64,000 nucleotides of DNA from a virus, in IMG/VR virus record IMGVR_UViG_3300028394_002659; one strand, 5' to 3'. The position numbers were made by a program, and so were the translations under genes. Positions within the stretch are counted from its first letter, which is position 1. Each line of letters starts with the position of its first letter. Under the pieces are notes generated by a model. That model searched no databases. It was not told the origin of the DNA and worked only from the letters and a program-made list of their open reading frames with translations. Positions 33,844-57,462 of this stretch are shown piece by piece.

Positions 33844-34695
33844 TCATGCCACTCTGGAAGTGCTAACAAGACAAGTTCTATGCATAACACGTGGACAGTC
33901 ATCTGGGGTACCGGTGGCCAAATGCATCAATGAACGATTGTCCCAAAACACAATATCAAATGGTTTCCATTTGTGTCGATAAACATATTGTGGCTTGGTG
34001 GTATGCTCGAATAAAAATTGCAAAAGTTCTTGACCTTGTTGTTCGGGCAAGCCATCAATCCTGGAAGTAAAATGTGGGTTTACTAACAAAGTCTTAAACC
34101 CACCTACTGGATGTTGTTGTACAATAGATTGCAGGCGAGGGGGATTTTTAGCCCGCTGTTCTGTAGATAGATCTGGACGATAGGGATTTTGAGATTGTAA
34201 TTCGTCGTACTTATGATAATACACATGCTCGGCTCGCAGGCCTTGCAGTTGTTGTTTCATGTCTGTACTGAGACCATCATATGCGGCTTGTTGATCAGCA
34301 AACAGGGTATCTCCACCTTGAGCAGGTAACACCTGAGCATGCAAAAATGCTCCTGCATACGGGTATTCTTTCCAACTGCTGTCAGAGTGCCAGTATAGTC
34401 CTGCATCTCGAATACCAATGGGCCGAGAATCTTTGATTACATTGCTCACCACCAGCACTTCAGGATGCCCCGGCAAAGGATAATCTAGTACAGGATGATT
34501 ATATGTTGATAGATTACCAAAATTGCTAGAAAGAGCAATAAGTTGGTCAGGGGTGATTGGTTGATCACGAAATATCAACAAATGCTCTTGAAGATGAATT
34601 GATTTTAATTCAGCAACTACGTTGTCTTCAAGCGGTTGAGAACAATCAAGACCTATGACTTCTGCGCCAAATGGTCGTAGTTTAGTAATCTGCAT
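33844..34695 (-). CDS. TauD/TfdA family 2OG-Fe(II) dioxygenase
   Basis: WHSD, GGDTLFAD, WDNRSLMH, R.MHR. Confidence 0.92.
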   Translation of the reverse strand: MQITKLRPFGAEVIGLDCSQPLEDNVVAELKSIHLQEHLLIFRDQPITPDQLIALSSNFGNLSTYNHPVLDYPLPGHPEVLVVSNVIKDSRPIGIRDAGLYWHSDSSWKEYPYAGAFLHAQVLPAQGGDTLFADQQAAYDGLSTDMKQQLQGLRAEHVYYHKYDELQSQNPYRPDLSTEQRAKNPPRLQSIVQQHPVGGFKTLLVNPHFTSRIDGLPEQQGQELLQFLFEHTTKPQYVYRHKWKPFDIVFWDNRSLMHLATGTPDDCPRVMHRTCLVSTSRVA

Positions 34696-34730
34696 GATGC
34701 AATTATTTATCTACACTGATATTGTTATAA

Positions 34731-35054
34731 TTATTCAGGATCGACTTGGGCACTGATGATCATTGCCGGAAATTCAAGTCCTTGGCCTAAATTTCCTGCT
34801 GAAACAAGATCAGCCCAGGCTTGTGCTGTGGCTAGATCTGGCCAGGACCGAACCACAGATCTTGGTGAGCTTTCAGACACGCTTTCAACAACTGATTCAC
34901 TAACAACATTATTACTTGAAACTCCGTGCGTTGTTGCAAATGTTTCTAAAACTGATTGTGCTTGTGCTTGGAAGACAGATATTGCTGTTGTAAAATCGCT
35001 TCCAGATAAGTTATGATGGGCAAATCCCCCGTTGACTACAGTAGTTGTACGCAT
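34731..35054 (-). CDS. Hypothetical late protein
   Basis: TATAAATA (35079-35086) and AGGAG upstream. Confidence 0.7.
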   Translation of the reverse strand: MRTTTVVNGGFAHHNLSGSDFTTAISVFQAQAQSVLETFATTHGVSSNNVVSESVVESVSESSPRSVVRSWPDLATAQAWADLVSAGNLGQGLEFPAMIISAQVDPE

Positions 35055-35135
35055 GATAATCTCCTATATGCTTTGAAGTATTTATACTAGACAACCCAAT
35101 AAGGTCCAAGAGTTATGTATTATCAATTACCAATT

Positions 35136-35209
35136 TGGAGCGGGATACGAGAATCGAACTCGTCACTAAACCTTGGCAAGGTTTCGAGATACCACTTCAC
35201 CAATCCCGC
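35136..35209 (-). tRNA. tRNA-Gly(GCC)
   Basis: Cloverleaf, anticodon loop TTGCCAA, CCA. Confidence 0.95.
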
Positions 35210-35290
35210 ATTTGAGAAAAACCCTGTCGTATGTGCCAACTTCCGGGAGTGGCCAGCACACAGAGGACAGAGCCGTGTTGCTTTCGCTTG

Positions 35291-35764
35291 TTAGGCTGCA
35301 CGTAGACCTTTGAATCGATCTGCGGCATATGAAGCCGCAAACGCATCAGGTTTGACAAAAGGTATAACATTACACACACCCTTGATGTAACCAATGGCCT
35401 GTGAAATCACACAACTTGATCCATGCATTTCGTTGGGATTGATGTCCAGGTGAACTTCAACTTCACGCCCTTCTAGTACTTCGGCCAGTTTTAGGTACAA
35501 TTCGCTTACTTTGTACACTTCGGTCATGAGCCGCAAACTGGGGCGACTGGCTCGTTGATCCCAGTCACGCTCACGTTGCACTTCACCAAACAATTTGCAA
35601 CCGTTGTTGCCGTTGATATGAACCACGATAGCCAGCACATAGTCAGCATGCCAAGCACCGTCAACTTTGATACGTTCACTATCACAACCAAGATAGATTC
35701 GAGTTTCGGGTGTTTGAGTCCGAATGAATTCTGCCACTTGGTCAATGTCTAGTTTTTTCATCAT
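35291..35764 (-). CDS. RNase H-like YkuK/DUF458 family protein
   Basis: IYLGCDS, RLMTEV, EVHLDIN, KPDAFAASYAAD. Confidence 0.8.
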   Translation of the reverse strand: MMKKLDIDQVAEFIRTQTPETRIYLGCDSERIKVDGAWHADYVLAIVVHINGNNGCKLFGEVQRERDWDQRASRPSLRLMTEVYKVSELYLKLAEVLEGREVEVHLDINPNEMHGSSCVISQAIGYIKGVCNVIPFVKPDAFAASYAADRFKGLRAA

Positions 35765-35804
35765 TTGCCTTCTATTTAACCTGATAAACATTACAGTTTT
35801 ATTA

Positions 35805-35881
35805 TGGTGCCCCAAGAGAGACTCGAACTCTCAAAATTTGGCTTCTAAGACCAACACGTATACCAATTCCGTCATCGGGGC
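35805..35881 (-). tRNA. tRNA-Leu(TAG), short variable loop
   Basis: Loop CTTAGAA; 77 nt; CCA. Confidence 0.9.
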
Positions 35882-35888
35882 TGAATAC

Positions 35889-35962
35889 TGGCACGGGAAC
35901 TAGGGCTCGAACCTAGAATGACAGAGTCAAAGTCTGTAGTGTTACCATTACACTATTCCCGA
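35889..35962 (-). tRNA. tRNA-Gln(TTG)
   Basis: Loop CTTTGAC; CCA. Confidence 0.93.
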
Positions 35963-35972
35963 ACAAAAAACT

Positions 35973-36047
35973 TGGTGGATGAGAGTAGAGTCGAACTACC
36001 ACTTAACTCCGTATGAAGGAGGCGCACTACCATTATGCTACTCATCC
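35973..36047 (-). tRNA. tRNA-Met/Ile2(CAT)
   Basis: Loop TTCATAC; CCA. Confidence 0.88.
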
Positions 36048-36049
36048 AT

Positions 36050-36125
36050 TGGGGTGTCTGATGGGGATCGAACCCACGCATATCGGGATCACAACCCGAG
36101 GCCTTACCACTTGGCGACAGACACC
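36050..36125 (-). tRNA. tRNA-His(GTG)
   Basis: Loop TTGTGAT; G-1:C73; CCA. Confidence 0.95.
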
Positions 36126-36131
36126 GTTGAT

Positions 36132-36208
36132 TGGCCGGTCCTGAGAGATTTGAACTCCCAACTTCCAGTTTCGAAGACTGGCACTCTATCCAATTGAGTT
36201 AAGGACCG
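36132..36208 (-). tRNA. tRNA-Arg(TCG)
   Basis: Loop CTTCGAA; CCA. Confidence 0.93.
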
Positions 36209-36213
36209 CTTAA

Positions 36214-36321
36214 CATAAGCAAACACACTACATCCAGCGAACCCATCTGCTGGCTTAGTTATTAATCGCTACAGGGTAACCGGAACCCTTCGCTGAGGCG
36301 TTAGTAATGTGTTTGCTTATG
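36214..36321 (-). ncRNA. Unassigned structured RNA, element A
   Basis: 18-bp closing stem; interior motifs shared with 38357-38421. Confidence 0.55.
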
Positions 36322-36393
36322 GTAGGGGTGCTCGGGAACGATCCGAGTTTTACTGGTTAAAAGCCAGTTACTTCACCTTAAAGTTTCACCCCC
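36320..36393 (-). tRNA. tRNA-Lys(TTT)
   Basis: Loop CTTTTAA; atypical T-loop ATCGTTC; CCA. Confidence 0.9.
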
Positions 36394-36444
36394 GCTATCT
36401 TATCACTCTTGTCACTTGTCATGACAGATCTCCTTTTAAAAAAT

Positions 36445-36518
36445 TGGTAGCCAGAACAAGAATTGAACTTGTAATAATCGCTTATCAAGCGACCGTTATA
36501 CCATTTAACTATCCGGCT
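36445..36518 (-). tRNA. tRNA-Ile(GAT)
   Basis: Loop TTGATAA; CCA. Confidence 0.93.
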
Positions 36519-36530
36519 ATAAATATGCGT

Positions 36531-36761
36531 ATGATTACCGCTGACGACGCTATGATATTCCTGTCCCAAGAGGCACAAGGTGTTTATCAACAACGATTTT
36601 ATTCCACCACAACTCGCAAGTTCACTCTCAATACCATGCTGATCAACCCACCTAAAGAGTTCAAACTTGATACTACGTTTGTGGTGCCTCCTCCAGGTTC
36701 CGACCCTGGTTCCCTGGATTTTCAGTCCAGTGCTATGACCACATCAGCTAAAGAGGCGTAA
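36531..36761 (+). CDS. 76-aa ORF antisense to the tRNA array, overlapping tRNA-Phe
   Basis: TATAAATA at 36518-36525, ATG 5 nt later. Confidence 0.45.
   Translation: MITADDAMIFLSQEAQGVYQQRFYSTTTRKFTLNTMLINPPKEFKLDTTFVVPPPGSDPGSLDFQSSAMTTSAKEA
36682..36757 (-). tRNA. tRNA-Phe(GAA)
   Basis: Loop CTGAAAA; atypical T-loop GTCGGAA; CCA. Confidence 0.9.
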
Positions 36762-36837
36762 TGGTACATCCTGACGGGCTCGAACCGCCGACAGCCTCGG
36801 TGTAAACGAGGAACTCTACCAACTGAGTTAAGGATGC
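36762..36837 (-). tRNA. tRNA-Val(TAC)
   Basis: Loop TTTACAC; CCA. Confidence 0.95.
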
Positions 36838-36842
36838 ATGTT

Positions 36843-36930
36843 TGGCGGAAGCGGTGAGATTCGAACTCACGGTACCTTTCGATACGCTGGTTTTCAAGAC
36901 CAGAGCCATAGACCACTCGACCACACTTCC
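36843..36930 (-). tRNA. tRNA-Ser(TGA)
   Basis: Loop CTTGAAA; long variable arm; CCA. Confidence 0.95.
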
Positions 36931-36936
36931 TAATTT

Positions 36937-37014
36937 TGGAATAGCGGGTGAGATTCGAACTCACGATTTTAGGGATTTGCAATCCCTTGCATTTGACCAC
37001 TCTGCCACCGCTAT
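36937..37014 (-). tRNA. tRNA-Cys(GCA)
   Basis: Loop TTGCAAA; U73; CCA. Confidence 0.93.
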
Positions 37015-37018
37015 ATAT

Positions 37019-37095
37019 TGGTCCGAGTAGTAGGATTCAAACCTACGACCCTCTGGTCCCAAACCAGATGCGCTATCAGGCTGCGCTATACTCGG
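37019..37095 (-). tRNA. tRNA-Pro(TGG)
   Basis: Loop TTTGGGA; CCA. Confidence 0.95.
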
Positions 37096-37334
37096 TTAAT
37101 TTTTTTCTTGATCCACATGCCGAACAATGTACCACAGTAGGCACCTGCCAGGGCTGGAATTAATGCCCAGTGATCTTCGGTGTAGTTGATCACTGCCACA
37201 CTGGCTGTGAATGTCACAGCCACAGACCACCATGCGGCCATCATGGCACGATCATCCTGAATTGACTTTACAAAGTAAACATAAATCAAATCAGTGGCAA
37301 ACACTGCCGCAAAAGTTATGAAGTAGGTCCACAT
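37086..37334 (-). CDS. Small membrane protein
   Basis: Three hydrophobic helices; stop lies inside the tRNA-Pro 5' end. Confidence 0.7.
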   Translation of the reverse strand: MWTYFITFAAVFATDLIYVYFVKSIQDDRAMMAAWWSVAVTFTASVAVINYTEDHWALIPALAGAYCGTLFGMWIKKKINRV

Positions 37335-37335
37335 G

Positions 37336-37563
37336 TTATTTCTTGGTTAATGGAGATTCTTGTGTTTTTTCTATCTCCGGCGGTTCTTCAAATCTTGCAT
37401 TGCCACCAAGTCCTTTCCAACTGTCTTCTGTGAAGATTCTAATGGGTCGCCAGTGTCGAGCAATGATGTTGTTGATTACAACAAGACCAATTACCACAAC
37501 AACAAAGCCTAGTGCTGTCAAAACACTACCGGCTAGAAACACTGCCGCTTGATCCATGTCCAT
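37336..37563 (-). CDS. Small membrane protein
   Basis: One TM helix; SD AAGGA. Confidence 0.7.
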   Translation of the reverse strand: MDMDQAAVFLAGSVLTALGFVVVVIGLVVINNIIARHWRPIRIFTEDSWKGLGGNARFEEPPEIEKTQESPLTKK

Positions 37564-37580
37564 AAGTTTTTCCTTAATTT

Positions 37581-37654
37581 TGGAGCGGGATAGCGGAATC
37601 GAACCGCTGACTCTAACTTGGAAGGATAGGGTAATACCATTTTACGAATCCCGC
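37581..37654 (-). tRNA. tRNA-Gly(TCC)
   Basis: Loop CTTCCAA; CCA. Confidence 0.92.
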
Positions 37655-37663
37655 TTGTTGTAT

Positions 37664-37692
37664 ATTATACTGTGTATAGACAGTTTAGTCAA
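37664..37692 (-). promoter_or_regulatory. sigma70 promoter inside tRNA array
   Basis: TTGACT-17-TATAAT. Confidence 0.8.
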
Positions 37693-37705
37693 TGACTTTG
37701 AATAC

Positions 37706-37779
37706 TGGAGCGGAATACCAGAATCGAACTGGTGACATGACCTTGGCAAGGTCGCGTTTTACCCCTAAACTAATTCCGC
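37706..37779 (-). tRNA. tRNA-Gly(GCC), second copy
   Basis: Loop TTGCCAA; CCA. Confidence 0.93.
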
Positions 37780-37784
37780 ATAAG

Positions 37785-37860
37785 TGGTGCCCCCACCATG
37801 ATTCGAACACGGCACCTACTGATTACAAATCAGTTGCTCTACCGAATGAGCTATAGGGGC
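37785..37860 (-). tRNA. tRNA-Thr(TGT)
   Basis: Loop TTTGTAA; CCA. Confidence 0.95.
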
Positions 37861-37866
37861 AAATTT

Positions 37867-37942
37867 TGGCTCCTCAGGGTGGGATCGAACCACCGACACC
37901 TTGATTAACAGTCAAGTGCAACTACCGCTGTGCTACTGAGGA
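37867..37942 (-). tRNA. tRNA-Asn(GTT)
   Basis: Loop CTGTTAA; CCA. Confidence 0.95.
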
Positions 37943-37950
37943 ATAAACTT

Positions 37951-38040
37951 TGGCGGAACGTTAGGGAGTCGAACCCTATCAACAGCGTTAACCATTGTAC
38001 AGATTAGCAATCTGCTGCCTTACCATCCGGCCCACGTTCC
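37951..38040 (-). tRNA. tRNA-Ser(GCT)
   Basis: Loop TTGCTAA; long variable arm; CCA. Confidence 0.95.
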
Positions 38041-38048
38041 TCTATACT

Positions 38049-38077
38049 ATTATATAGTTAACACCTCATGGTGTCAA
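38049..38077 (-). promoter_or_regulatory. Perfect sigma70 promoter inside tRNA array
   Basis: TTGACA-17-TATAAT. Confidence 0.85.
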
Positions 38078-38085
38078 CAGTTATT

Positions 38086-38171
38086 TGGTGGAGAGTCAGG
38101 GATTCGAACCCCGTATACCGTAAGGTGGAAGATTTACAGTCTCCTGAAGTCGCCAATGCTTCTCACTCTCC
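38086..38171 (-). tRNA. tRNA-Tyr(GTA)
   Basis: Loop CTGTAAA; long variable arm; CCA. Confidence 0.93.
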
Positions 38172-38175
38172 AATT

Positions 38176-38250
38176 TGGTGGACCGTCCCGGGTTCGAACC
38201 GGGGACTGAGGCTTGCAAAGCCACTGTGTTCCCAACTATACCAACAGCCC
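38176..38250 (-). tRNA. tRNA-Ala(TGC)
   Basis: Loop TTTGCAA; G3.U70; CCA. Confidence 0.93.
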
Positions 38251-38257
38251 AATTATT

Positions 38258-38334
38258 TGGCGACTCCGAAAGGATTTGAACCTCTGACATTTGGTTTTGG
38301 AGACCAACGTTCTGCCGGACTGAACTACGGAGCC
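38258..38334 (-). tRNA. tRNA-Trp(CCA)
   Basis: Loop CTCCAAA; G73; CCA. Confidence 0.93.
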
Positions 38335-38356
38335 ATCAACACACTGTTGCCAATGT

Positions 38357-38421
38357 GCGTATCGAAACACTCTACATGGATGAACCCACTTGCCTTGAGG
38401 CCTGAGAATGCTTCGATACGC
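38357..38421 (-). ncRNA. Unassigned structured RNA, element B (homolog of A)
   Basis: 17-bp stem enclosing GCCTCA..GCA..TGGGTTC..ATGTAG. Confidence 0.55.
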
Positions 38422-38520
38422 TCGGTTTTTTTTGTGTACAAAAACACAAGCCATCCCCGAGGCCGCCCATTTGCAGTTTTGAGTGATACCGGCTCGCGTT
38501 GCCTTGCACTTTGATAACGA

Positions 38521-38568
38521 TCATTGAACGTTATTGTGAATCCATTGCCAATACTCTTCTGTTGTCAT
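38521..38568 (-). CDS. 15-aa micro-ORF MTTEEYWQWIHNNVQ
   Basis: Strong SD AAGGAG 7 nt upstream. Confidence 0.45.
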   Translation of the reverse strand: MTTEEYWQWIHNNVQ

Positions 38569-38585
38569 TCTAGTTCTCCTTAAAA

Positions 38586-38620
38586 ACAAAAAACCCTGGA
38601 GTTTTTAGTTCCAGGGTCTT
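38586..38620 (-). terminator. Intrinsic terminator of putative attenuator 1
   Basis: ACCCTGGA-9nt-TCCAGGGT followed by TTTTTGTTTTT. Confidence 0.85.
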
Positions 38621-38646
38621 TGAATTAGATACGATTGCGTACTACG

Positions 38647-38757
38647 TTAAGACCCTGTGTCTCCTAGAATGATTGCTGTTGCGCGACCATAGGCATGTGA
38701 CCAGGCAGATGTCTGACTGAACATATTCTTGGGCGACAAACAGAGTTTCGTTTTCAT
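38647..38757 (-). CDS. Putative leader peptide 1 (36 aa, leaderless)
   Basis: MKTKLCLSPKNMFSQTSAWSHAYGRATAIILGDTGS; ATG 7 nt after TATAAT. Confidence 0.6.
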   Translation of the reverse strand: MKTKLCLSPKNMFSQTSAWSHAYGRATAIILGDTGS

Positions 38758-38764
38758 AGTATCA

Positions 38765-38793
38765 ATTATAGTTTATTTACCTTTGTGCGTCAA
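38765..38793 (-). promoter_or_regulatory. sigma70 promoter of leader 1
   Basis: TTGACG-17-TATAAT, with TAAATA in the spacer. Confidence 0.85.
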
Positions 38794-38834
38794 TCATTTT
38801 GGCAAACTTTCTTGTTGTATTTACACAACAGATT

Positions 38835-39965
38835 TTATTCACCTATACAGAAGGGTTTGCTGTAGATTGGTGCCCCGGTATCTTTTCCAATCATACTGTT
38901 GATTGGGTTGATACTGGTTTCTACCAGATGGTTGCAGAAGTCTTTTTCTAATAATAAATTTTTAATGCCTTTTACATAAAGATTAGCCACGTCATTGTGC
39001 TTCTTTAGCAAAACATCTAATCCAAGATCAAATCCACAAGAAAGTTCGCCATCAATGCCATCAACATTCACGGGGGCCAATTCAAATTTGGATTCGGCGC
39101 CTTTTTGTGCAAAACTTGCGCCAGCAAATACTTCATTTTGTCTCGATAAGTTTTTTTGCCATATGCTATACGTAGCACTTGCGATGTTTTTAAATTTGGA
39201 ACCATCGGGATCTAACCTGGCCTTGCCTGTATTTGCACTCATACGAAGTTTGAGTATTTTTTTAATCATATGACTTTGTTTGAGTGCCAACATAGGGTCA
39301 GTAAAAAAACATTCAATGTTTTCAAAATTCATTGTGCTCAACAAGGTTCTTGCATCATGGCATGAATAATATTTGTTATCTTTTTGGAATACTCTAGGTT
39401 GTTCGTGTCCAGTAATCAAACACCAGGTTGAACCACCGAACTGGTCAGCACAATAGTCCCACATTACAGAGTCCGTGGTTCCCATGGCAAATTTAGGGAT
39501 CATTGAAATATTTTGAAAGATCCAATCTTCTCCTGTTACAATTTGTTGTTTGGCCGCAGGATTAAAACGTTCTTTTACAGTAATTTTGGTCAGTGGGTCA
39601 TGATGGTTGTTTTTTAGCCAATCCACATATTGTGAATTATTCCAGGGCTCGTACTTGTCGTTGACCCAAATTACAATTTCATCAATGTGTAAATTATTGC
39701 GTTTGAACACATTGTAGATTGTGTTACTATCTGTACCGCCACTCCACGACAGCATCACATGTTCATATTTGTTTCTTAAATTACACGCATGCTGATCCAT
39801 CAGTTGATCCAAGGACTCAGCAGGGTCTTGTAACCAATTTAGTTGGTCATTCTGTTGGTCGTGACAAACAAACTCAATAGGAGTTTTGCTTATAAATGCC
39901 TCGTATTTTGCAAGTATATGATTGAAAATTATTTTGCCATTAACACGGAAATAGATAGAGGGCAT
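38835..39965 (-). CDS. PP-loop (adenine nucleotide alpha-hydrolase-like) protein
   Basis: LSWSGGTDS; GHEQPR; paralog of 43513-44628. Confidence 0.75.
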   Translation of the reverse strand: MPSIYFRVNGKIIFNHILAKYEAFISKTPIEFVCHDQQNDQLNWLQDPAESLDQLMDQHACNLRNKYEHVMLSWSGGTDSNTIYNVFKRNNLHIDEIVIWVNDKYEPWNNSQYVDWLKNNHHDPLTKITVKERFNPAAKQQIVTGEDWIFQNISMIPKFAMGTTDSVMWDYCADQFGGSTWCLITGHEQPRVFQKDNKYYSCHDARTLLSTMNFENIECFFTDPMLALKQSHMIKKILKLRMSANTGKARLDPDGSKFKNIASATYSIWQKNLSRQNEVFAGASFAQKGAESKFELAPVNVDGIDGELSCGFDLGLDVLLKKHNDVANLYVKGIKNLLLEKDFCNHLVETSINPINSMIGKDTGAPIYSKPFCIGE

Positions 39966-39981
39966 TTGTGTAGCGTATGAT

Positions 39982-40055
39982 TGGATGCGGGGGACAGATT
40001 CGAACTGCCGATGCACCTGGCTTATGAGACCGGTGTGGTGACCGCCCTCCCCGCG
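39982..40055 (-). tRNA. Atypical initiator-like tRNA(CAT)
   Basis: CGCGGGG/CCCCGCA with C1:A72 mismatch; loop CTCATAA; reduced D arm; CCA. Confidence 0.75.
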
Positions 40056-40065
40056 GTATATTTAA

Positions 40066-40369
40066 TGCTCTGCGTCCCCCGGCGGTAATTATAGTGTATC
40101 AGAAATTTCGTCAAGTTGCCCCAACTAGTCTATTCATCACTTACACCCTCCACCCGCTTCCCGACAGGGACCGTTCTCGTATTGCTAACGCCGGTTAGGT
40201 TGGACCGCTGATTGCTCAGTGAAACTTTGCTGTTTCAGAACCACCCGTGTGTGTCATCACACTTCTCATCGTCTGGGTCAGACTATCCAGTGACGCTGGA
40301 ACGTAGGGGAGAGGCCACGGTTGCAGGATCTAGTGCTCCGAAGAGGAAGTGTCCAGGCGGTGTGGCCTC
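40066..40369 (-). ncRNA. Unassigned ~300-nt structured RNA
   Basis: GC-rich, no credible ORF, many hairpins, three GCAA tetraloops on the minus strand. Confidence 0.55.
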
Positions 40370-40374
40370 AAACT

Positions 40375-40450
40375 TGGCGGTCTTAGGGGGTAACGATCCC
40401 CACTCTTACGGCGTGACAAGCCGTCGTGCGTCCATGAACACTTTAAGACC
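40375..40450 (-). tRNA. tRNA-Asp(GTC)
   Basis: Loop TTGTCAC; atypical T-loop ATCGTTA; CCA. Confidence 0.92.
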
Positions 40451-40453
40451 AAA

Positions 40454-40606
40454 TTTTTATAGTCAAGCACCGAGAATGCCAATTTAGGAGTCCGGTGCTT
40501 CCGTTCCAAAGCCGATGCAGTTATATCAGGATCAGTCGCCGGCCGCTGTGACCCGAATAGTGTATGCGTCCATACACGATACCTTATCGATGCTTGACTA
40601 TAAAAA
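40454..40606 (-). ncRNA. Unassigned structured RNA, element C
   Basis: 20-bp closing stem TTTTTATAGTCAAGCATCGA/TCGGTGCTTGACTATAAAAA. Confidence 0.55.
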
Positions 40607-40609
40607 CAA

Positions 40610-40685
40610 TGGTACTCCGTGGGGGAATCGAACCCCTCCTTACCCGCGTGAAAGGCGAGTGTCCTAACCGATAGACGAACGGAGC
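40610..40685 (-). tRNA. tRNA-Glu(TTC)
   Basis: Loop CTTTCAC; CCA. Confidence 0.95.
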
Positions 40686-40954
40686 ATGTAGTTTTACATT
40701 GAGGAACCATTGTGGATCTCGTTCTGCTTGGTTTGCGAGGCCAAGTCACCACGGTCATTACTGCCAGACGATCCGCCGCTTTTCTGGATCTACTTTTTAC
40801 AGTAGAGAGCCGACTTCATGACTGATAGCAAGTGGACACCCGCCGGTGTCAATTCACTTCTACCAATGCCTCTAACGGGTCTGGTAACCTCTTTGTATAT
40901 TTTAATGATCTGTTGCAAGTAGTCTCGATCGACTTTGTTGCTTTGTTAAGTTCT

Positions 40955-40983
40955 ATTGTAGCAGAGTTTCAATTTATGGTCTA
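40955..40983 (-). promoter_or_regulatory. sigma70-like promoter
   Basis: TAGACC-17-TACAAT. Confidence 0.6.
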
Positions 40984-40986
40984 GCA

Positions 40987-41020
40987 CAAAAAAGAAAACC
41001 CTCCGAAGCGGAGGGTCTTT
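40987..41020 (-). terminator. Intrinsic terminator of putative attenuator 2
   Basis: ACCCTCCG-CTT-CGGAGGGT followed by TTTCTTTTTT. Confidence 0.85.
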
Positions 41021-41038
41021 GTTAGTAGTACTTTTGTA

Positions 41039-41116
41039 TTACAGACAAAGCCCCCAATGGCAATCCCACTCATGTTCTGAGCGAAGGGTTGTGATGATTG
41101 CAGTTGTTTGTTTCAT
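41039..41116 (-). CDS. Putative leader peptide 2 (25 aa, leaderless)
   Basis: MKQTTAIITTLRSEHEWDCHWGLCL; ATG 6 nt after TATAAT. Confidence 0.55.
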   Translation of the reverse strand: MKQTTAIITTLRSEHEWDCHWGLCL

Positions 41117-41122
41117 AAGTGT

Positions 41123-41151
41123 ATTATATATGACAAGTGAATAAAAGTCAA
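41123..41151 (-). promoter_or_regulatory. sigma70 promoter of leader 2
   Basis: TTGACT-17-TATAAT. Confidence 0.85.
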
Positions 41152-41312
41152 GGCTTTTTGGCTCGGTTGCAAGCAGGATCTCGACAAGCCGTAATTCGTT
41201 TGCGATCACAGTCTGGGCAGTCTTTGATTCTGATCCACATGGTGGGCATGAATCTTACAACCTCATTTTTGCCTGGTTTATCCCAACTGTCACATTTGAT
41301 AGCATGTTGCAT
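41148..41312 (-). CDS. Small Cys-rich protein
   Basis: SD AAGGAG before MQHAIKC; CPDC..C....C. Confidence 0.55.
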   Translation of the reverse strand: MQHAIKCDSWDKPGKNEVVRFMPTMWIRIKDCPDCDRKRITACRDPACNRAKKP

Positions 41313-41382
41313 AATGTCTCCTTGACATACATATACAACGCCGTAGCCCGTCAAAGGGTTTACACAAACTGTGTTACTTTGC

Positions 41383-42276
41383 TCATTTCTTAGTCAATAG
41401 TTTTACTACCTGTTGATACTCACGCTCAATATCACGTGCAAACTCATCGGGTGTTTGTTTTCGGGGAACTCCAGCATGTACCACAGTGAGAATTTGTTTT
41501 TGCACTTCTTCGTTGGCTCTAGCACTTTCTAGCATGTTGTACAAGCGATCACGTGTGTCTTTGGGGGTTCCCGGTGGCGCCCAGAACCCAGTCCAGCCTT
41601 CTTGGCTGATATTGTACCCAAGTTCCACAAGACTTTTTATACCATTACGTCCCTTTGGGGTTAGCACTGCCAGGCCGTTTAGTTCTCCAGTGGCAACTCG
41701 ATCCTCCAACAAGAAAGTAACAGTGGTAACTTCGATACTCTTGTTCATCAATGCCAACATGGCCGCATTGTCACCGTTGTAGTTCACCATGATGAGATTG
41801 GGATTGTTGCCCAGCAATTCTTCAAGTGCAATTCTGGTAATAGCGCCATTGTTGCCCACAGCCACAGTGCGTGTTTTCAATGCAGACTTCAGTTGCTCGA
41901 CTGTGCGGATGTCGGAGTCTTTGCGACTGACTAGCATCTGGCCGTTTGTGGCACCACGCATGAGTGGCACAATCTTTGTCATGATTTCGTGGGCCGCGGG
42001 GTTACTGGCAGAATTGTAAACCACTGCACTGCTACCGGTATACATCACAGTGTTGCCGTCGGGCTTGGCAGCCATCAACTCCTGCATGCCAACTAGGCCT
42101 TCGGCGCCAGGTTTGTTGACTACTATAGCCTCAACGCCCTGGCGTGCCAATTCCTTGGCATACACACGTGCCGCAAGGTCAGTGTTGCCCCCGGCCGCAT
42201 AGGTAACAATAATTTTCAATGGTTCTGCCGCATGAGCAGAAGCCACAAGTAATAATGAGAGTAAAAGTTTTTTCAT
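41383..42276 (-). CDS. Bug/TctC tripartite tricarboxylate transporter solute-binding protein
   Basis: Signal peptide; YAAGGNTD, VVNKPGAEG, KPDGNT, W.GFWAPPGTP. Confidence 0.9.
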   Translation of the reverse strand: MKKLLLSLLLVASAHAAEPLKIIVTYAAGGNTDLAARVYAKELARQGVEAIVVNKPGAEGLVGMQELMAAKPDGNTVMYTGSSAVVYNSASNPAAHEIMTKIVPLMRGATNGQMLVSRKDSDIRTVEQLKSALKTRTVAVGNNGAITRIALEELLGNNPNLIMVNYNGDNAAMLALMNKSIEVTTVTFLLEDRVATGELNGLAVLTPKGRNGIKSLVELGYNISQEGWTGFWAPPGTPKDTRDRLYNMLESARANEEVQKQILTVVHAGVPRKQTPDEFARDIEREYQQVVKLLTKK

Positions 42277-42971: not shown

Positions 42972-42989
42972 GAGAAGTTGAAAATAGGA

Positions 42990-43250
42990 GATAGGTTTAT
43001 TCTGTTACGAGGAAAACCTATCAAAACCCTAGGCTACAATCAAGCGGCCAATGCGAACTGTGAGTCGTTAGCGGTTACTTTTGTTTAGTTTTTACGACTA
43101 TCGCTGTCGTGCTGTCCACTTCAATACTCCTGACCCAATCGATCCTGTGTCATCCCCACCTAAATATACCTCATACACTTAGGTGGAGATGCCGGGCACT
43201 GCCCCCGGGTCTTGAATCCATTTTTATCGGCTTCATACAGCAATAACTTA
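42990..43250 (-). ncRNA. ssrA: Circularly permuted (two-piece) tmRNA; tag (A)ANDSQFALAA
   Basis: T arm and CATCTCC-ACC (43191-43182) lie upstream of GGGGATG (43157); G3.U70; tag ORF 43072-43040; 3' hairpin 42990-43022; TATAAATA at 43258-43265. Confidence 0.9.
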
Positions 43251-43281
43251 CAGTATATATTTATACAGGTTGTTTGTCAAC

Positions 43282-43461
43282 CTATTTGGTACTCACATGA
43301 CATGCGGCCACAATCTGTTTGTTTTGTGCCCGGAATTCTTCACGTTTTTGAACTCGGGCTTGCTCGCATTCTGCCTGAGTTTTGAACTTGGCCTGTTCGC
43401 CATACTCAGGCACCGGTCCTAAGACACTAAAACTCAACACCCAGATCAGAGTCCGGCTCAT
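43282..43461 (-). CDS. 59-aa small exported/membrane protein with two Cys (not in ORF track)
   Basis: MSRTLIWVLSFSVLG..FKTQAECEQA..ACHVSTK; TATAAATA at 43481-43488. Confidence 0.65.
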   Translation of the reverse strand: MSRTLIWVLSFSVLGPVPEYGEQAKFKTQAECEQARVQKREEFRAQNKQIVAACHVSTK

Positions 43462-48432: not shown

Positions 48433-50379
48433 TCAAGCCCGGGGACGGTCCCATTGGCCACTTTGTTTCCATTCTAAGTGAAAATCAGTTGGTACCCCTT
48501 GCCATGGTTCACCTTGCATTCTTATATCAAAATCTGCTGACCATACGCCAGAGGCATTGATTTCAAAATCATACCTTGCCCATAATTTATGATCACCGCC
48601 GCGTGGATAACGAAGATAACCAAATTCTTCTAGGTCTAGTTCGGGATCAAATTCTAGATGAAATTGATAAGCACCCATGGCCAGCCAAGTCACACGCAAG
48701 AATGGCCATATCTCATTCACCAGGTGATTGGCAATGGGATTGATGTCGTCCTTGATTACGTAATAATCAAAGTCTTTTTCCCAGGGTATAGGATCAAGCC
48801 AGTTGGCAGGATCATATTCTATACTATAGTGATTTTCTAACGTAGGATATTGTTTGACAGGTTTTAACCACGGTGGTGTGTTGTGTAATCTAAATTGTTC
48901 TATCAAGATATTGGTCGTTTTCCAACGAATAAATCTAGTGAATCCGGTATTTTTGCCGTCGGTAGTAGCCCAGCCATAACACCAGTCTTGACCTTCGGGT
49001 CGGACCCCAAACCGTTCGCGTTCTAGTTCCAAAGGTGTGTTGTGCCCAAGGCCGCATGTGCCGGAACTCAGTCCGCCCATGCCTGATATACGTAATCGCC
49101 ATATCATGGTCATGGTTTGTGCTACATCGGTTAATTCTTCCCCAGGAAAACCAGTGAACCATGTGGCAAAATTATTTCTCAATTTGTTGTCATTTAGATC
49201 TTGAAAGTTTTGTTCAATCCACTCAACCTTGCAATTCTTTTTCATAAGATCCAACACTCGTTGTGACCCAGATTCAACACCAAATGCAAACCCACTAGCA
49301 CCTGCTTTTTGTAGCAGTCCCCAAAAGTCTCGATCCATTCTACCATCAATGCGAGCATATCCTTGCCATTTGATTTTAATTTCTCTATCAATTAACCCTA
49401 GTGCAAATGATTCCAATTCACGCAAATTGCCATTTAGTAAACTGTCAATAAACCATACTGATTTTGCATTTTGCTGTCGGTACACAATTTCAATTTCCTC
49501 TAACACTCGACTGGCCTGTCTTGAACGGTATTTCCAAAACACTGTTTCATTGCAGTACACACAATTGCTAGTGCAGCCACGACTGAATTCACAACTGATT
49601 CCTTGGCCATCGTATAAACTGATATCCATGTCAGAATAGTCAGCAGGCGGCATTGAATCAAGATCTATTTTTTGATCTTTACTTTGCACACAAAGTTGTG
49701 GAATTTCCTCTGTGGGATTTTCTAAGTTTTCAAGTATACGTACAAACCACAATTCGCCCTCGCCGCTGACCACATAGTCAATCGAGGTTGAATGAGTCAT
49801 TTTTAATTGAGTGGCATTGGCACCACCGATAATGATAATCACACCCGGGATAAGTCTTTTAAATTCTTGTGCCATCCACATGGTACATGTGTCATTGGTA
49901 TACCATGTGCTAAAACCAATTACTGTGGGTGCCCATTCTATAACCTGTGCCATGTATTTTCGTAGGGTTGGCTCAATAATAGGATGTACATTCTGACTGT
50001 AGTTTGGCTCAATCCACTTCCAATCTTCGTATGCTGTCCATAATTCTGGCACTCCAGCCTCATGTTTGGTCAAGATGTTGATATCCCAAACTCGTGTGGG
50101 CCATCCCCCGTGCTTGGACAATGCGCTCATTCTAGCAATACCGTAAGGTGGTGCTAGTTGTGTCCACTCGGGCGCAACAACAAGAGCCACACGATTTTGG
50201 CGTGTGGCATCTGTGTGCTGTACAACCTCAGTCAAGTTCTTTTGCTTGCGGCTTTCTAATCTAGGACGATTTTCTGCCATGTACATTTCAGTAAGAATCA
50301 CATGGGGGTCTTGTCCTAGATTTTGTGGCCGGGGATCAGGCGCTTGAACAGTCTGGATTGGAATTATTCTTTTTTCCAT
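48433..50379 (-). CDS. B12-binding domain radical SAM protein
   Basis: PPYGIA, IIIGG, GEGE, SRGCTSNCVYC, GVESGS, GFPGE. Confidence 0.92.
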   Translation of the reverse strand: MEKRIIPIQTVQAPDPRPQNLGQDPHVILTEMYMAENRPRLESRKQKNLTEVVQHTDATRQNRVALVVAPEWTQLAPPYGIARMSALSKHGGWPTRVWDINILTKHEAGVPELWTAYEDWKWIEPNYSQNVHPIIEPTLRKYMAQVIEWAPTVIGFSTWYTNDTCTMWMAQEFKRLIPGVIIIIGGANATQLKMTHSTSIDYVVSGEGELWFVRILENLENPTEEIPQLCVQSKDQKIDLDSMPPADYSDMDISLYDGQGISCEFSRGCTSNCVYCNETVFWKYRSRQASRVLEEIEIVYRQQNAKSVWFIDSLLNGNLRELESFALGLIDREIKIKWQGYARIDGRMDRDFWGLLQKAGASGFAFGVESGSQRVLDLMKKNCKVEWIEQNFQDLNDNKLRNNFATWFTGFPGEELTDVAQTMTMIWRLRISGMGGLSSGTCGLGHNTPLELERERFGVRPEGQDWCYGWATTDGKNTGFTRFIRWKTTNILIEQFRLHNTPPWLKPVKQYPTLENHYSIEYDPANWLDPIPWEKDFDYYVIKDDINPIANHLVNEIWPFLRVTWLAMGAYQFHLEFDPELDLEEFGYLRYPRGGDHKLWARYDFEINASGVWSADFDIRMQGEPWQGVPTDFHLEWKQSGQWDRPRA

Positions 50380-50405
50380 ACCAGTTACTTATGCTTACGT
50401 ATATG

Positions 50406-50714
50406 TCAAGCCCGGTACCAAATTATGTCTGATTTTATTTCAATAGTCTCTGCACCGTCGTGTTCTTTTATGATGAATTCCGTGCCCACAGGAAGCCACT
50501 CTATTTCTAAATCTCTCATGCCACCATCATAGATACCTGGGTATTTGAGTTTGACATATACGTCTAGTTCTTCCCATTTATTATGTTCGACCAATTCTAC
50601 TATAGCAGAGTCAAACAATAATTCTTCGGTGTCAGGATTCCACGAACTCCAGCCTGCACCATAGCCTGGCGATACTAGTACAGCCACCCGACCATCGCGG
50701 ATTAGTTTGTTCAT
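50406..50714 (-). CDS. Conserved phage hypothetical protein
   Basis: VAVLVSPGYGAGWSSW, EHDGAE. Confidence 0.75.
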   Translation of the reverse strand: MNKLIRDGRVAVLVSPGYGAGWSSWNPDTEELLFDSAIVELVEHNKWEELDVYVKLKYPGIYDGGMRDLEIEWLPVGTEFIIKEHDGAETIEIKSDIIWYRA

Positions 50715-50980
50715 TTCAAGTCGCCTCGGAGGGTATGCCATACCACAGGGTCACATCCAAGATAGATACGGTATTTTACATTGTTGCGCCAGCGTGTGAA
50801 TTCGTTGATCCGGCGTTCTACAAAATTAAACATTGAGTCACGAAACCAAAACGGATTTAGTATGGCCGCAATCATGGCTGTGGCCAGGGGTGGCATTAGC
50901 ACAGCCACGGTGAACCAATGAAACGCCATGGCACGATAGAATCGGCCACCCGCAGGTGTTAGTGTAATTTCTTTGTTCAT
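50711..50980 (-). CDS. Small membrane protein
   Basis: Hydrophobic segment; coupled. Confidence 0.6.
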   Translation of the reverse strand: MNKEITLTPAGGRFYRAMAFHWFTVAVLMPPLATAMIAAILNPFWFRDSMFNFVERRINEFTRWRNNVKYRIYLGCDPVVWHTLRGDLK

Positions 50981-51174
50981 TGCTGTACCTTTCTGCATTC
51001 AAACACGCCTGGGAACATTTTTTGTTCACGTACCAATTGATCCATGTATGTGACCATGGAAGTCCGGGTCTTTTCGCAGTCCGCTACGTCACGAAACTGA
51101 CTCATGCGCTCTATGTGAAAGCCCGGAAGCCCGGACTTGGCCACAACCAAAAATGTAAAGATTAGTTCGTACAT
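50977..51174 (-). CDS. Small two-Cys membrane/exported protein
   Basis: Same layout as 43282-43461. Confidence 0.6.
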   Translation of the reverse strand: MYELIFTFLVVAKSGLPGFHIERMSQFRDVADCEKTRTSMVTYMDQLVREQKMFPGVFECRKVQQ

Positions 51175-51176
51175 GG

Positions 51177-51359
51177 TTAGTCCATCAAACTGTGAAGTCT
51201 ATCTTCCCAGTAAAATTCATAACTTTGGCACTGCTCGGCTACTCGGCCCACAAGGCTGGCACGTTGTAGATAGGTGCGTGAAGCCTTTGCCGCTTCTAAT
51301 TTGGCAATCAATGCGTCAATGTCTGCGTTCATACGCTCGTCAAGTGGTGATAGTCTCAT
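51177..51359 (-). CDS. Hypothetical protein
   Basis: 60-aa ORF within operon. Confidence 0.55.
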   Translation of the reverse strand: MRLSPLDERMNADIDALIAKLEAAKASRTYLQRASLVGRVAEQCQSYEFYWEDRLHSLMD

Positions 51360-51450
51360 ATGTTTCTCTTTACATGTATCGGTTGATGAACCAAACTTTG
51401 ATCACAAAGGTAATGGCCAGGAATAAGAACATTTCAATCATGACGTTTCC

Positions 51451-51798
51451 TTAATCTAAACGGCTACCAGCGTAGGCTGTGAATCCGTATCGCTTGAACA
51501 CATCAGCCGCCGCTTGGGCACCTGCCTCCAGGGTGTCTACGTTTTGCACGTACATGTCTGCTGGGTTCCAAATTTGGAAGGCACCGGTGTGACTCTTGCT
51601 TACGCCTGCTTCTTTCAGTGCCTTACCAAGTTTGGTATTGCCTCGAACACCAAAGATGTCAACCCAGGCAAAGCCACAGGCAAACTGATCTCGTCCGCCA
51701 AGTTTTTCTTGGAAGAAACGTTCAGCGGCTTCGCGAGCGGCTGACTTGGCTTCGGCCACAATTGTGTCTACTTTGACACCGTTTACTGTTACTGTCAT
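51451..51798 (-). CDS. Conserved phage hypothetical protein
   Basis: CGFAWV..Q....E.GA.A.A....SRLD; SD AAGGAG; promoter 51829-51857. Confidence 0.75.
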   Translation of the reverse strand: MTVTVNGVKVDTIVAEAKSAAREAAERFFQEKLGGRDQFACGFAWVDIFGVRGNTKLGKALKEAGVSKSHTGAFQIWNPADMYVQNVDTLEAGAQAAADVFKRYGFTAYAGSRLD

Positions 51799-51846
51799 GG
51801 AGGGCTCCTTTTTAGTTTCTATACAAGTATTATAACAAATCGGTAA

Positions 51847-52194
51847 TTATTGGTCAACCGCTTTTGTACGCACATCTGTGTTGAGAGCAGGTGTATACTT
51901 TCGTATTAGTTCACGCTCTAGTGTGTGTGCCTGGGTCTTGCCACGTACAATGTCAACAATCGCAAAGTTCACAGCCGACTCACCAGCGGCACGAATTGCT
52001 TCGTACAGGCGCCAAGATTTGTCTTCTGTGCGTGAGCGATAAATGTGCTTGTTGATGCGTGAGCGCAGGCTCATGGTGATTGTGCGTTGAGTTTTTGCTG
52101 TAACACCAATGTAGTACTCCAAACCAATTTGGATGAAGTAAACAATGTGTGTACGGTCCACTCGTTTTTTGCGTGATTGCTTTTTAAGTTCCAT
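51847..52194 (-). CDS. GIY-YIG-like nuclease domain protein (leaderless)
   Basis: HIVYFI..YYIGVT..R...H..E..LI..LN; ATG 6 nt after TATAAT. Confidence 0.65.
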
Positions 52195-52200
52195 ACATGT

Positions 52201-52292
52201 ATTATAACCGAAATTGCTTTTTTGGTCAACCGAAATCAACTACTACAAAAGTATTACTTTTTCAGGGTTACAAAAGTAATACTTTGGGTTAC
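52201..52292 (-). promoter_or_regulatory. sigma70 promoter with clustered degenerate palindromic boxes
   Basis: TTGACC-17-TATAAT; CTACTAC-AAAA-GTATTAC; GGGTTAC-AAAA-GTAATAC-TTTG-GGTTAC. Confidence 0.7.
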
Positions 52293-52295
52293 ATT

Positions 52296-52655
52296 TTATG
52301 TACGATCAAGATAGCGTAAAAACTTTTCCAAGTCGCCATACATGGCGTACATGATGGCCTGCTGACTGCCGAATATGATTAGTTTGGGAGTTTTACCCGC
52401 CTTGAGATAGTAGGGACAATCCAGTTTTCGATTCAAGGTCATAAGCAAACTAGGACTCAACACTTTTGTAAAATCAAATTCATATTGTTCGATGGACAAA
52501 AATCTAAAAGCATCATAGCCAGAGATGCTCAATCTCAATCCACCATCGTCACGTGGATCTTGCCACCATGCTTTGAGTGCTAGTTCAACGCCAAGCCGGT
52601 CATCTACTGGCAGTTGATTTAGCAGTTGTTGAGTGAGTTGTTTTTTATTTGACAT
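52296..52655 (-). CDS. Hypothetical protein
   Basis: GGLRLS..G, CPYY. Confidence 0.7.
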   Translation of the reverse strand: MSNKKQLTQQLLNQLPVDDRLGVELALKAWWQDPRDDGGLRLSISGYDAFRFLSIEQYEFDFTKVLSPSLLMTLNRKLDCPYYLKAGKTPKLIIFGSQQAIMYAMYGDLEKFLRYLDRT

Positions 52656-52941
52656 CGGGGTATACTTGCGCCCCCTGCGTCAAGAGCACGACTGTGAACT
52701 TGTCGGTCTTGAATTGTGTGTTGAGTTTACGTGCTAGGTTCTTGGCATGACCGGGATTGGAGAATGAAACCTTCTTGTACTTGGGGCCGGGGTACTGTGT
52801 GAGCATGTTGGAGGTCTTCAAGTTGATTGGTTTGGTATCAAAAAACACCGCCCACACTCCTTCGGAAGCCAACACTTGTTCGGTCTTGTAAGTTGCTTTG
52901 TCAGTGTGTTCAATCAACACATTTGGTTTGGGTCTCGACAT
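52645..52941 (-). CDS. Hypothetical protein
   Basis: ATAAATA and GGAG upstream; KYKKVSFSNPGHA. Confidence 0.75.
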   Translation of the reverse strand: MSRPKPNVLIEHTDKATYKTEQVLASEGVWAVFFDTKPINLKTSNMLTQYPGPKYKKVSFSNPGHAKNLARKLNTQFKTDKFTVVLLTQGAQVYPDVK

Positions 52942-52972
52942 GATTATCTCCGTAGTTTATTTATCCCAATAA

Positions 52973-53188
52973 CTACGTGGTTTTGAAACTGCCACCGCTC
53001 AATTCTACCGTAACAGTTTCTTCTTTTGGCTGTGTATTTCGGGTATGCAAGGACTCCAGTGTCAGTAATAGTTTTGTAATATCACTATGTAAATCTTTGG
53101 CTTCTCGCATGGTCATAGCAAAATCACGCTGACCGCGTGATTCATGTGCTTTGATGCTGTCTACAAATCTATTGATGTGTATACTCAT
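52973..53188 (-). CDS. Hypothetical protein
   Basis: MSIHINRF..ELSGGSF; coupled. Confidence 0.65.
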   Translation of the reverse strand: MSIHINRFVDSIKAHESRGQRDFAMTMREAKDLHSDITKLLLTLESLHTRNTQPKEETVTVELSGGSFKTT

Positions 53189-53541
53189 GACACAAAAGGT
53201 TCTAGGTTGGGTGGAGTCCAACCAGCGGGCTTGAGTACCTTGCCATCTTCACGTTTGCGTACTCGACCTGTTTGTTTATCAATTTTGGCAAAGTTAGTGC
53301 TCATGACTTCTTTCCAGGCACCTTCGGCATCTACACCAAGACTGTGTATGGCACCAACGGTCACAACCAGGATGTCAATCAATGCGTCGAGATCGTCTAC
53401 TTTGGTCGTACTGGCTATTAGTTCATTGAATTCTTCACTGATGAGATTACAATACAGTTGATATTGTTGTTCGTTAAAGTCGCCCACGGTTTGTTCGCAG
53501 GCTCGCATGAATTTTTCTTGATCACGAAACGGATTTGTCAC
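53185..53541 (-). CDS. MazG-like NTP pyrophosphohydrolase
   Basis: LISEEFNEL, DALIDILVV, REDGKVLKP. Confidence 0.85.
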   Translation of the reverse strand: MTNPFRDQEKFMRACEQTVGDFNEQQYQLYCNLISEEFNELIASTTKVDDLDALIDILVVTVGAIHSLGVDAEGAWKEVMSTNFAKIDKQTGRVRKREDGKVLKPAGWTPPNLEPFVS

Positions 53542-53974
53542 TTGCTTGTTCCTTGGTTTGAAAGGGACCTTGATATGCATAACGCTCCAAGGTAATAAGT
53601 TTAGGGTGCTGTACTGCTTTCCACTTGCGATGTTGTTTGACCCGGTACCAACCAGCGGCAAACCACGACTTAGATTTGTCTTCTCTAGTGAACAGTGGCA
53701 ATCGGTGTTTCACGTCCCACAACGGATTAAACACATCTCCCGCGACTTCATGTCCATAAACCATGTTTGGTGGCAATGGGGTTGCTGTTTCTGCCGGCTC
53801 AAATTGGATGTTAACCGCCTCTCGAGCCATCTTGATTGTTTTGTAACTGATTACACTGTCAAGAATTTTTATTGTACAGTTACCGTTCTCTTTTACTTCA
53901 AGTTGGCCAATCTTGCGATCATCCTTCTTGAGTATGTAATACTGATTGTCCACCACTGGTTTGGCTAATATCAT
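53522..53974 (-). CDS. Hypothetical protein
   Basis: LPLFT..KSKSWFAAGWY, PKLITL.RY..GPF. Confidence 0.75.
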   Translation of the reverse strand: MILAKPVVDNQYYILKKDDRKIGQLEVKENGNCTIKILDSVISYKTIKMAREAVNIQFEPAETATPLPPNMVYGHEVAGDVFNPLWDVKHRLPLFTREDKSKSWFAAGWYRVKQHRKWKAVQHPKLITLERYAYQGPFQTKEQASDKSVS

Positions 53975-57390: not shown

Positions 57391-57462
57391 CTACATCCTT
57401 TGTTACTCATTGTACATTATACATGAAACTGCGGGTGTTTTGCAAGTGGTGAATTTGCCAGT

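Follow-up and report, generated by a model that had tools for sequence, protein, structure and literature searches.

How does a phage control the transcription of the tRNA genes that it carries? The question is raised by a compact leader located between 38793 and 38582 on the minus strand of the window, by which we mean the whole stretch of viral DNA analysed here, 64,000 nt in length. To our knowledge, the regulation of phage tRNA genes is hardly known. The genes themselves are widespread and their purpose is debated, with codon compensation, replacement of degraded host tRNAs and evasion of anticodon nucleases among the roles discussed in the available part of one account (PMC10264068). An earlier note on this DNA had proposed that the leader is a leader-peptide attenuator heading the tRNA array and built like those of the trp, his and thr operons. 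For an attenuator on phage tRNA genes, no description was found in a search of the full-text literature. On the evidence below, which comes from comparative sequence analysis, we favour with a probability of roughly 0.6 that the leader is a ribosome-mediated transcription attenuator, which would allow read-through to a structured RNA (X) and to tRNA genes when translation lags.

Genome setting and collection of relatives

The window corresponds to the minus strand of a 148.9-kb viral contig with a CheckV completeness of 43%. A related contig reaches 364 kb, indicating that the virus is a giant phage, and the DNA comes from freshwater and lake metagenomes. Around the leader switch, 25 tRNA genes form an island. 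Inside this island we also observed a phage tmRNA (window 42979-43294, minus strand), for which the best Rfam model is beta_tmRNA with 112 bits; ARAGORN missed the window copy, and the tmRNA of relatives carries the tag ANDSQFALAA. The type of this tmRNA suggests a betaproteobacterial host. A GOLLD RNA (Rfam, 204 bits) was detected in the 364-kb relative (L039:10738-11202, minus strand), one tRNA upstream of that phage's leader switch. Auxiliary metabolic genes flank the RNA island and encode a carbamoyltransferase as well as several large proteins of the radical-SAM, B12-binding and SPASM types (window 1995-20138, plus strand, and 48433-63943, minus strand).

Searches of the GenBank phage collection for cultured relatives by megablast, blastn and tblastn gave tRNA matches only, or nothing, and the search of IMG/VR gave two relatives. 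A 22-nt pattern from a conserved non-coding stretch downstream of the leader yielded 47 metagenomic loci. Together with the window and the two IMG/VR relatives, 50 loci bear this stretch, and the whole module was found upstream of it in 47; two of the remaining three end at a contig edge, and one has a leader of another family. The 47 module loci represent 40 distinct leader sequences and 31 distinct peptides.

Promoter and leaderless leader ORF

On the minus strand, the -35 hexamer TTGACG (38788-38793) and the -10 hexamer TATAAT (38765-38770) are separated by a 17-nt spacer, and 7 nt (TGATACT) lie between the -10 hexamer and an ATG at 38757. This promoter (38793-38765) scored 11/12 in our promoter scan. 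All relatives have TTGAC[ACG] at equal spacing, followed either by TATAAT and 7 nt or by TACAAT and AGGACTT(ATG/AAG)ATG, i.e. 10 nt with an in-frame ATG or AAG. As the spacing from promoter to ATG is kept, the mRNA is probably leaderless or nearly so, with a leader of 0-3 nt. The ATG opens an ORF of 36 codons (38647-38757, minus strand; MKTKLCLSPKNMFSQTSAWSHAYGRATAIILGDTGS, MKTKLCLS...GDTGS) that ends at the stop TAA 38649-38647. The earlier note had read the promoter, its distance to the ATG and the leaderless 36-codon ORF in the same way, and all of them were recovered here.

The ORF is open in 47/47 loci, with a length of 34-43 codons. All six types of indel within it are multiples of 3 (3 or 6 nt), for which the probability by chance is about 0.0014, compared with three of the nine types after the stop, where the gaps measure 1, 2, 3, 4, 5, 12 and 22 nt. 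Conservation of the ORF and of the segment-2 complementarity had been set beforehand as a test of the idea, and its outcome was favourable: start, frame and stop position are kept in the 40 distinct sequences, as is the pairing described below. Constraint on the peptide itself is weak (pN/pS about 0.6), and the best-conserved residues of the peptide, W, PG and GS, overlie the arms of RNA helices (helix 1 and segment 2, described below). These patterns of change point to a leader ORF that is translated, yet whose product would be of little importance. The codon adaptation of the leader falls in the lowest 4% of gene windows, and a PHROGs search with the leader peptide returned no family.

An ATG lies 5-7 nt past the -10 hexamer at 5 of 22 strong promoters of this phage, and leaderless mRNAs, judged by this spacing, seem to be common in its early region. 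Two ordinary genes among these five have their ATG 6 nt past a consensus -10 box and would be leaderless, one encoding a GIY-YIG-like protein (at least 98 aa) and the other a membrane protein of 77 aa (C1:42812 and C1:64356, plus strand, equal to window 52194 and 30650, minus strand). Of the 24 strong promoters in the early region, 22 share the same strand. A further observation concerns the sequence just 5' of the -35 hexamer, where a hairpin UGUUGU-GUAAAU-ACAACA is found (window 38813-38830, minus strand); in relatives its stems differ while the A/U-rich loop core UAAAUA is the same, even with a different upstream gene.

Two mutually exclusive folds at the end of the leader

The last sense codons of the ORF and the first base of its stop contain segment 2, CAGGGTCTT (CAGGGUCUU; 38649-38657, minus strand), the 5' strand of the predicted antiterminator. 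Segment 3, AAGACCCTG (AAGACCCUG; 38612-38620), is its exact complement and can pair either with segment 2 or, via ACCCUG, with segment 4. The overlap of this complement with the 5' arm of a U-tailed terminator, to which the earlier note had drawn attention, is present. The intrinsic terminator (38582-38617, minus strand; -12.7 kcal/mol) has a G+C-rich stem of 8 bp, ACCCTGGA (38617-38610) / TCCAGGGT (38600-38593), which reads ACCCUGGA/UCCAGGGU in the RNA, a 9-nt loop and the U-tract UUUUUUGUUUUU (TTTTTTGTTTTT to 38582). Intrinsic terminators usually have smaller loops, and as this one exceeds the scanner limit of 8, the terminator was missing from our minus-strand scan, while the same hairpin was listed on the plus strand. 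Contigs from four freshwater RNA runs include a few from relatives that bridge the terminator and others that reach upstream of the predicted start, although DNA carry-over is possible in these runs and the contigs show no ends.

Helix 2:3 removes ACCC(UG) from the terminator stem, so that the two folds are mutually exclusive. The loop of the antiterminator encloses an inner hairpin (UAGUACG-CAAU-CGUA-U-CUA; 38626-38644, minus strand), which was found by folding and recurs in relatives with other sequence (AUAC/GUAU; UAUA-UUCG-UAUA in L013; GUUAAC in group C). Within the ORF, the RNAalifold consensus of the 40 sequences contains helix 1, formed by CCUGG (38705-38701) and CUAGG (38667-38663). 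As CCUGG/CYAGG it is paired in all sequences with one-sided (G-U) changes only, it does not overlap segment 2, and from its position it may serve as a pause hairpin. A clear 1:2 anti-antiterminator was absent from the consensus fold of the 40 leaders. For the leader as a whole, this consensus is helix 2:3 and not the terminator.

We then asked how far the pairing departs from expectation. In the window, the pairing energy between segment 3 and the leader is -16.4 kcal/mol, compared with -9.4 +/- 2.0 kcal/mol in dinucleotide shuffles (P = 0.0035). The complementarity exceeded shuffles in 6/7 lineages tested (P from <0.0005 to 0.03); in the L012 group (P = 0.086), a U-A pair of the terminator has become A-U with segment 2 unchanged, and the antiterminator is down to 7 bp. 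Across the alignment of 40 sequences, 93.4% of the cells of helix 2:3 are paired, while shuffles gave 88.4%, with 0/500 reaching the observed value, and a slid partner gave at most 62%. Two-sided changes in this helix occupy 14 cells, against 6.3 in shuffles, and since the sequences are kin to each other such covariation counts overstate the number of independent events.

The changes themselves are of several types. Helix 2:3 shows UA/UG/CG at one pair, CG/UA at another and AU/GC at a third, and the U-A/U-G/C-G pair flips between close relatives (L051 vs L015, L022 vs L016). The terminator stem also covaries, one of its pairs being UA, AU or CG. Segments 2, 3 and 4 are altered together in L013/L020 and L049 (CCGGGGUUCU / AGAACCCCGG / CCGGGG), and both helices are preserved. 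Six leaders have an ORF seven codons longer, and in these helix 2:3 is extended by UUUGAA/UUCAAA. Compensatory changes in the three segments, which the earlier note had suggested looking for, are thus found in 2:3 and in 3:4, including cases where all three change at once.

Folding of both states, likewise suggested there, was carried out by forcing each helix in turn. The forced 2:3 fold was more stable than the forced 3:4 fold in 9/9 representatives, by 0.7-7.5 kcal/mol. Since the free RNA is more stable when folded as the antiterminator, termination should require segment 2 to be held, for example by a ribosome. The stop codon is suitably placed: it follows the segment 2 core by 3 nt in 34 leaders, where it overlaps segment 2, and by 21 nt in 6, where it lies inside the extended helix. 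A ribosome finishing the leader would therefore cover the 5' strand of the antiterminator, by geometry alone. In 37/40 leaders the stop is separated from segment 3 by 30-32 nt, a regularity that may mean that a ribosome terminating on the leader has to stand at a set distance from the terminator. The parts of the module, their conservation, covariation, energetics and spacing can all be read from the aligned sequences.

Genes downstream of the proposed switch

Directly past the U-tract and upstream of tRNA-Trp lies ORF2 (38521-38581, minus strand), a conserved ORF of 15 codons (MTTEEYWQWIHNNVQ, with two Trp) that has the strong Shine-Dalgarno sequence AAGGAG and would be reached by read-through only. 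About half of the relatives carry it, as an insert of 78 nt, and the others lack it. The next element is X (38340-38516, minus strand), an unannotated structured RNA of no known class, for which no Rfam match was obtained. RNAalifold analysis of 24 sequences predicted 4 helices with 42 pairs, 15 of them with compensatory changes; the structure spans 160-220 nt, and among its hairpins are one of the GNRA type and a long one whose tip varies. In a search with the leader pattern, X was found on the same strand behind every true leader match with downstream sequence. A tRNA gene does not follow X directly in some loci (L059, L037/L040/L043 and L010). Because X is constant and the tRNA variable behind the leader, we regard X as the leader's constant partner.

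In the window, X is followed by the genes for tRNA-Trp(CCA), tRNA-Ala(UGC) and tRNA-Tyr(GUA) (38086-38334, minus strand), the sole tRNAs downstream of the switch that lack their own consensus promoter. On this strand, no promoter-like site scoring 9/12 or better was detected from the terminator to tRNA-Trp. A promoter inside X was also considered and rejected, as it offered weak hexamer resemblances only, sitting in covarying helices. Further on, near-perfect or perfect sigma-70 promoters (38049-38077 and 37664-37692, minus strand) end 9-10 nt before tRNA-Ser(GCU) and tRNA-Gly(UCC). The array is a patchwork of several transcription units, and as much of it has its own consensus promoters, strict gating would be limited to X and the three tRNAs. 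The proposal that the leader heads the tRNA array would accordingly hold for tRNA-Trp, Ala and Tyr, with the corrections that X comes first and that later tRNAs are partly self-promoted.

Proposed mechanism and alternative explanations

In the proposed mechanism, a strong early promoter of the sigma-70 type would start the RNA at the AUG or within a few bases of it, and 70S ribosomes would load directly onto the leaderless 36-codon leader. In the free RNA, segment 2 would capture segment 3 once it is made, before segment 4 exists, and the resulting antiterminator is the stabler of the two structures. With the antiterminator formed, polymerase would continue to ORF2, X and tRNA-Trp/Ala/Tyr, and would add to the transcription of the tRNAs beyond. 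A ribosome keeping pace on the last codons or the stop would instead cover segment 2, leaving 3:4 to pair and transcription to stop at the U-tract. Read-through would then be inverse to the speed of initiation and decoding on the leader. That the position of the ribosome decides the fold, and that the response runs in this direction, we infer from the relative stability of the two folds and the place of the stop codon.

Three other explanations deserve consideration. A 36-codon ORF and one 9-mer complement are not compelling alone when seen in a single sequence, and the amino-acid diversity of the leader is not significant, so an ordinary promoter and terminator accompanied by an accidental ORF and an accidental 9-nt complement could in principle look much the same. 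We consider this barely conceivable, as the reading frame, its start, the place of the stop and the pairing all persist across 40 distinct sequences, compensatory changes included, and the complementarity stands out from shuffles even in the window alone (P = 0.0035). It is harder to set aside the view that the leader is a stand-alone early unit, either a small-protein gene or a stable leader RNA that doubles as an sRNA, with its own terminator, in which helix 2:3 shapes or stabilises the released RNA, read-through is leakage, and X and the tRNAs are transcribed mainly from other promoters, including phage-specific ones. Promoter, ORF and terminator do form a complete unit in about 175 nt, the peptide core WSH(A/V)YGR is moderately conserved with synonymous changes, and phage middle and late promoters are beyond the reach of the promoter scan used. 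Leader peptides, and RNAs derived from attenuators, are also known to work in trans, for example rnTrpL and peTrpL as described in the available parts of PMC6614838 and PMC7298713. However, it would be hard to explain on this view why a conserved, covarying helix should compete with the terminator of its own unit and be stabler than that terminator. X, moreover, always follows the leader in the same orientation, no promoter being detectable from one to the other, and the peptide is weakly constrained outside the RNA helices and belongs to no PHROG family. We therefore hold the stand-alone unit to be unlikely.

A switch could also exist but be set otherwise, by arrest of the nascent peptide at the end of the ORF in response to a small molecule, as in TnaC and SecM, or by a protein or RNA, of phage or host origin, binding to the leader (e.g. 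at AGGAG or the inner hairpin) and stabilising one fold. AGGAG in the ORF is invariant or nearly so, a W at about -17 from the C-terminus and a nearby (I/S)I(P/L)G are conserved, and the inner hairpin keeps its structure while its sequence changes. Yet the W, PG and GS codons sit on the arms of helix 1 and segment 2, where RNA pairing explains their conservation, and WSHAYGR is replaced in L013/L020 (WLLANGS) and in L037/L049 (WSRGFAG, WSRAFAI) with the switch kept. No candidate binding factor was found, and we judge this explanation to be quite improbable. Attenuation by a translating ribosome remains the reading we prefer.

Relation to known attenuators

The trpL, hisL, thrL, pheL and ilv leaders of E. 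coli and Salmonella share with the phage leader a short translated ORF, an intrinsic terminator and an exclusive antiterminator whose 5' strand lies under the finishing ribosome; in them, a stalled or absent ribosome favours read-through. The phage leader differs from the trp/his class in having no cognate codon run, no clear 1:2 anti-antiterminator and a leaderless mRNA, and in that a phage structured RNA and tRNAs, rather than biosynthetic enzymes, lie downstream. The likeness to the trp/his/thr type drawn in the earlier note was borne out for the anatomy, an ORF followed by 2:3 against 3:4 with covariation, and does not extend to cognate codon runs. Rfam leader families (Trp_leader, His_leader, Thr_leader, Leu_leader and others) gave no match at E up to 1 in 34500-41500, nor at the gathering score in the whole window.

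By analogy, the module is nearer in function to broad translation-stress attenuators than to the trp/his class. Such attenuators without codon runs are already known (the whiB7 uORF and bmrB), and the concept proposed here is a variant of these. In mycobacteria, knocking down genes for amino-acid biosynthesis, tRNAs or tRNA synthetases activates the whiB7 uORF, according to the available part of PMC10274678. As in our proposal, translation of that uORF controls antitermination, and it acts as a broad sensor of translation stress without a strict run of a single codon (same part of PMC10274678). The whiB7 system is a cellular stress regulator in which a transcription factor is controlled and the uORF is enriched in alanine (PMC10274678), whereas the phage leader shows no such enrichment and has no sequence relation to it. 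The bmrB-bmrCD system of B. subtilis likewise combines a leader ORF with alternative stem-loops and an intrinsic terminator and is induced by anything that slows translation, but it is bacterial, not viral, serves an antibiotic response through an ABC transporter and has an SD-dependent start (PMC4191407). Leaderless leader peptides with alternative hairpins that decide termination occur in Corynebacterium glutamicum, for ilvBNC (PMC11857589) and in the trpE, leuA, ilvB and aroF leaders (PMC3890552); unlike the phage leader, these have cognate codon runs (branched-chain or aromatic) and belong to actinobacterial biosynthetic operons.

Candidate signal and related leader units

The earlier note had put weight on a near pan-amino-acid leader as a sensor of general translation stress. 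The leader does use 18 distinct amino acids, with E and V absent. This is not unusual, as 12% of the 36-residue windows in the phage's own proteins do as well (P about 0.12 for 18 of the 20 amino acids), and leaders across the family have 15-20 distinct residues; the composition was consequently ruled out as a statistical signal. The leader has no tandem regulatory codons and no codon run, and its sensitivity to any single tRNA should therefore be low.

Depletion of tRNAs or attack by an anticodon nuclease is a tentative suggestion for the signal. The low codon adaptation of the leader hints at it, as does the presence of translation-repair genes (tRNAs and tmRNA) in the island; the lack of a tandem codon and of a link between leader residues and downstream tRNAs counts against it. 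A fuller and equally speculative version is a dedicated feedback circuit, in which the codon-diverse leader would gauge the decoding capacity of the host (starvation, host tRNA decay or an anticodon nuclease) and free X and the tRNAs, while paralogous leaders would gate Glu/Asp blocks. If true, this would mean that a phage measures translation and answers it, and that leader-peptide attenuation governs non-coding RNA genes. The module that would do so occupies about 180 nt, and it also points to X, a new and strongly covarying structured RNA, behind the switch.

A second unit of the same design is present in the window on the minus strand, with TTGACT-17-TATAAT (41151-41123), a leaderless ORF (41116-41039) and a terminator (41019-40995). 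Its ATG lies 6 nt past the -10 hexamer, the ORF has 25 codons (MKQTTAIITTLRSEHEWDCHWGLCL), a hairpin CUUUGU/ACAAAG extends across the stop, and the MFE fold is the terminator state. In seven related loci checked, this family lies about 430 nt upstream of tRNA-Glu, with tRNA-Asp usually next. E and D are at background frequency in the leader that precedes these genes (3/25 residues), and a link of leader residues to downstream tRNAs is not supported here. A third family has leaderless ORFs of 44-48 codons (...RVQGDRV) and was found at L006:817, L008 (minus strand, about 3420) and L038:3909. In the second and third families, the end of the ORF pairs with the flank or the 5' arm of the terminator, with P at most 0.01 in 9/12 units. 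In L038, the leader of the third family stands in for the first leader upstream of X.
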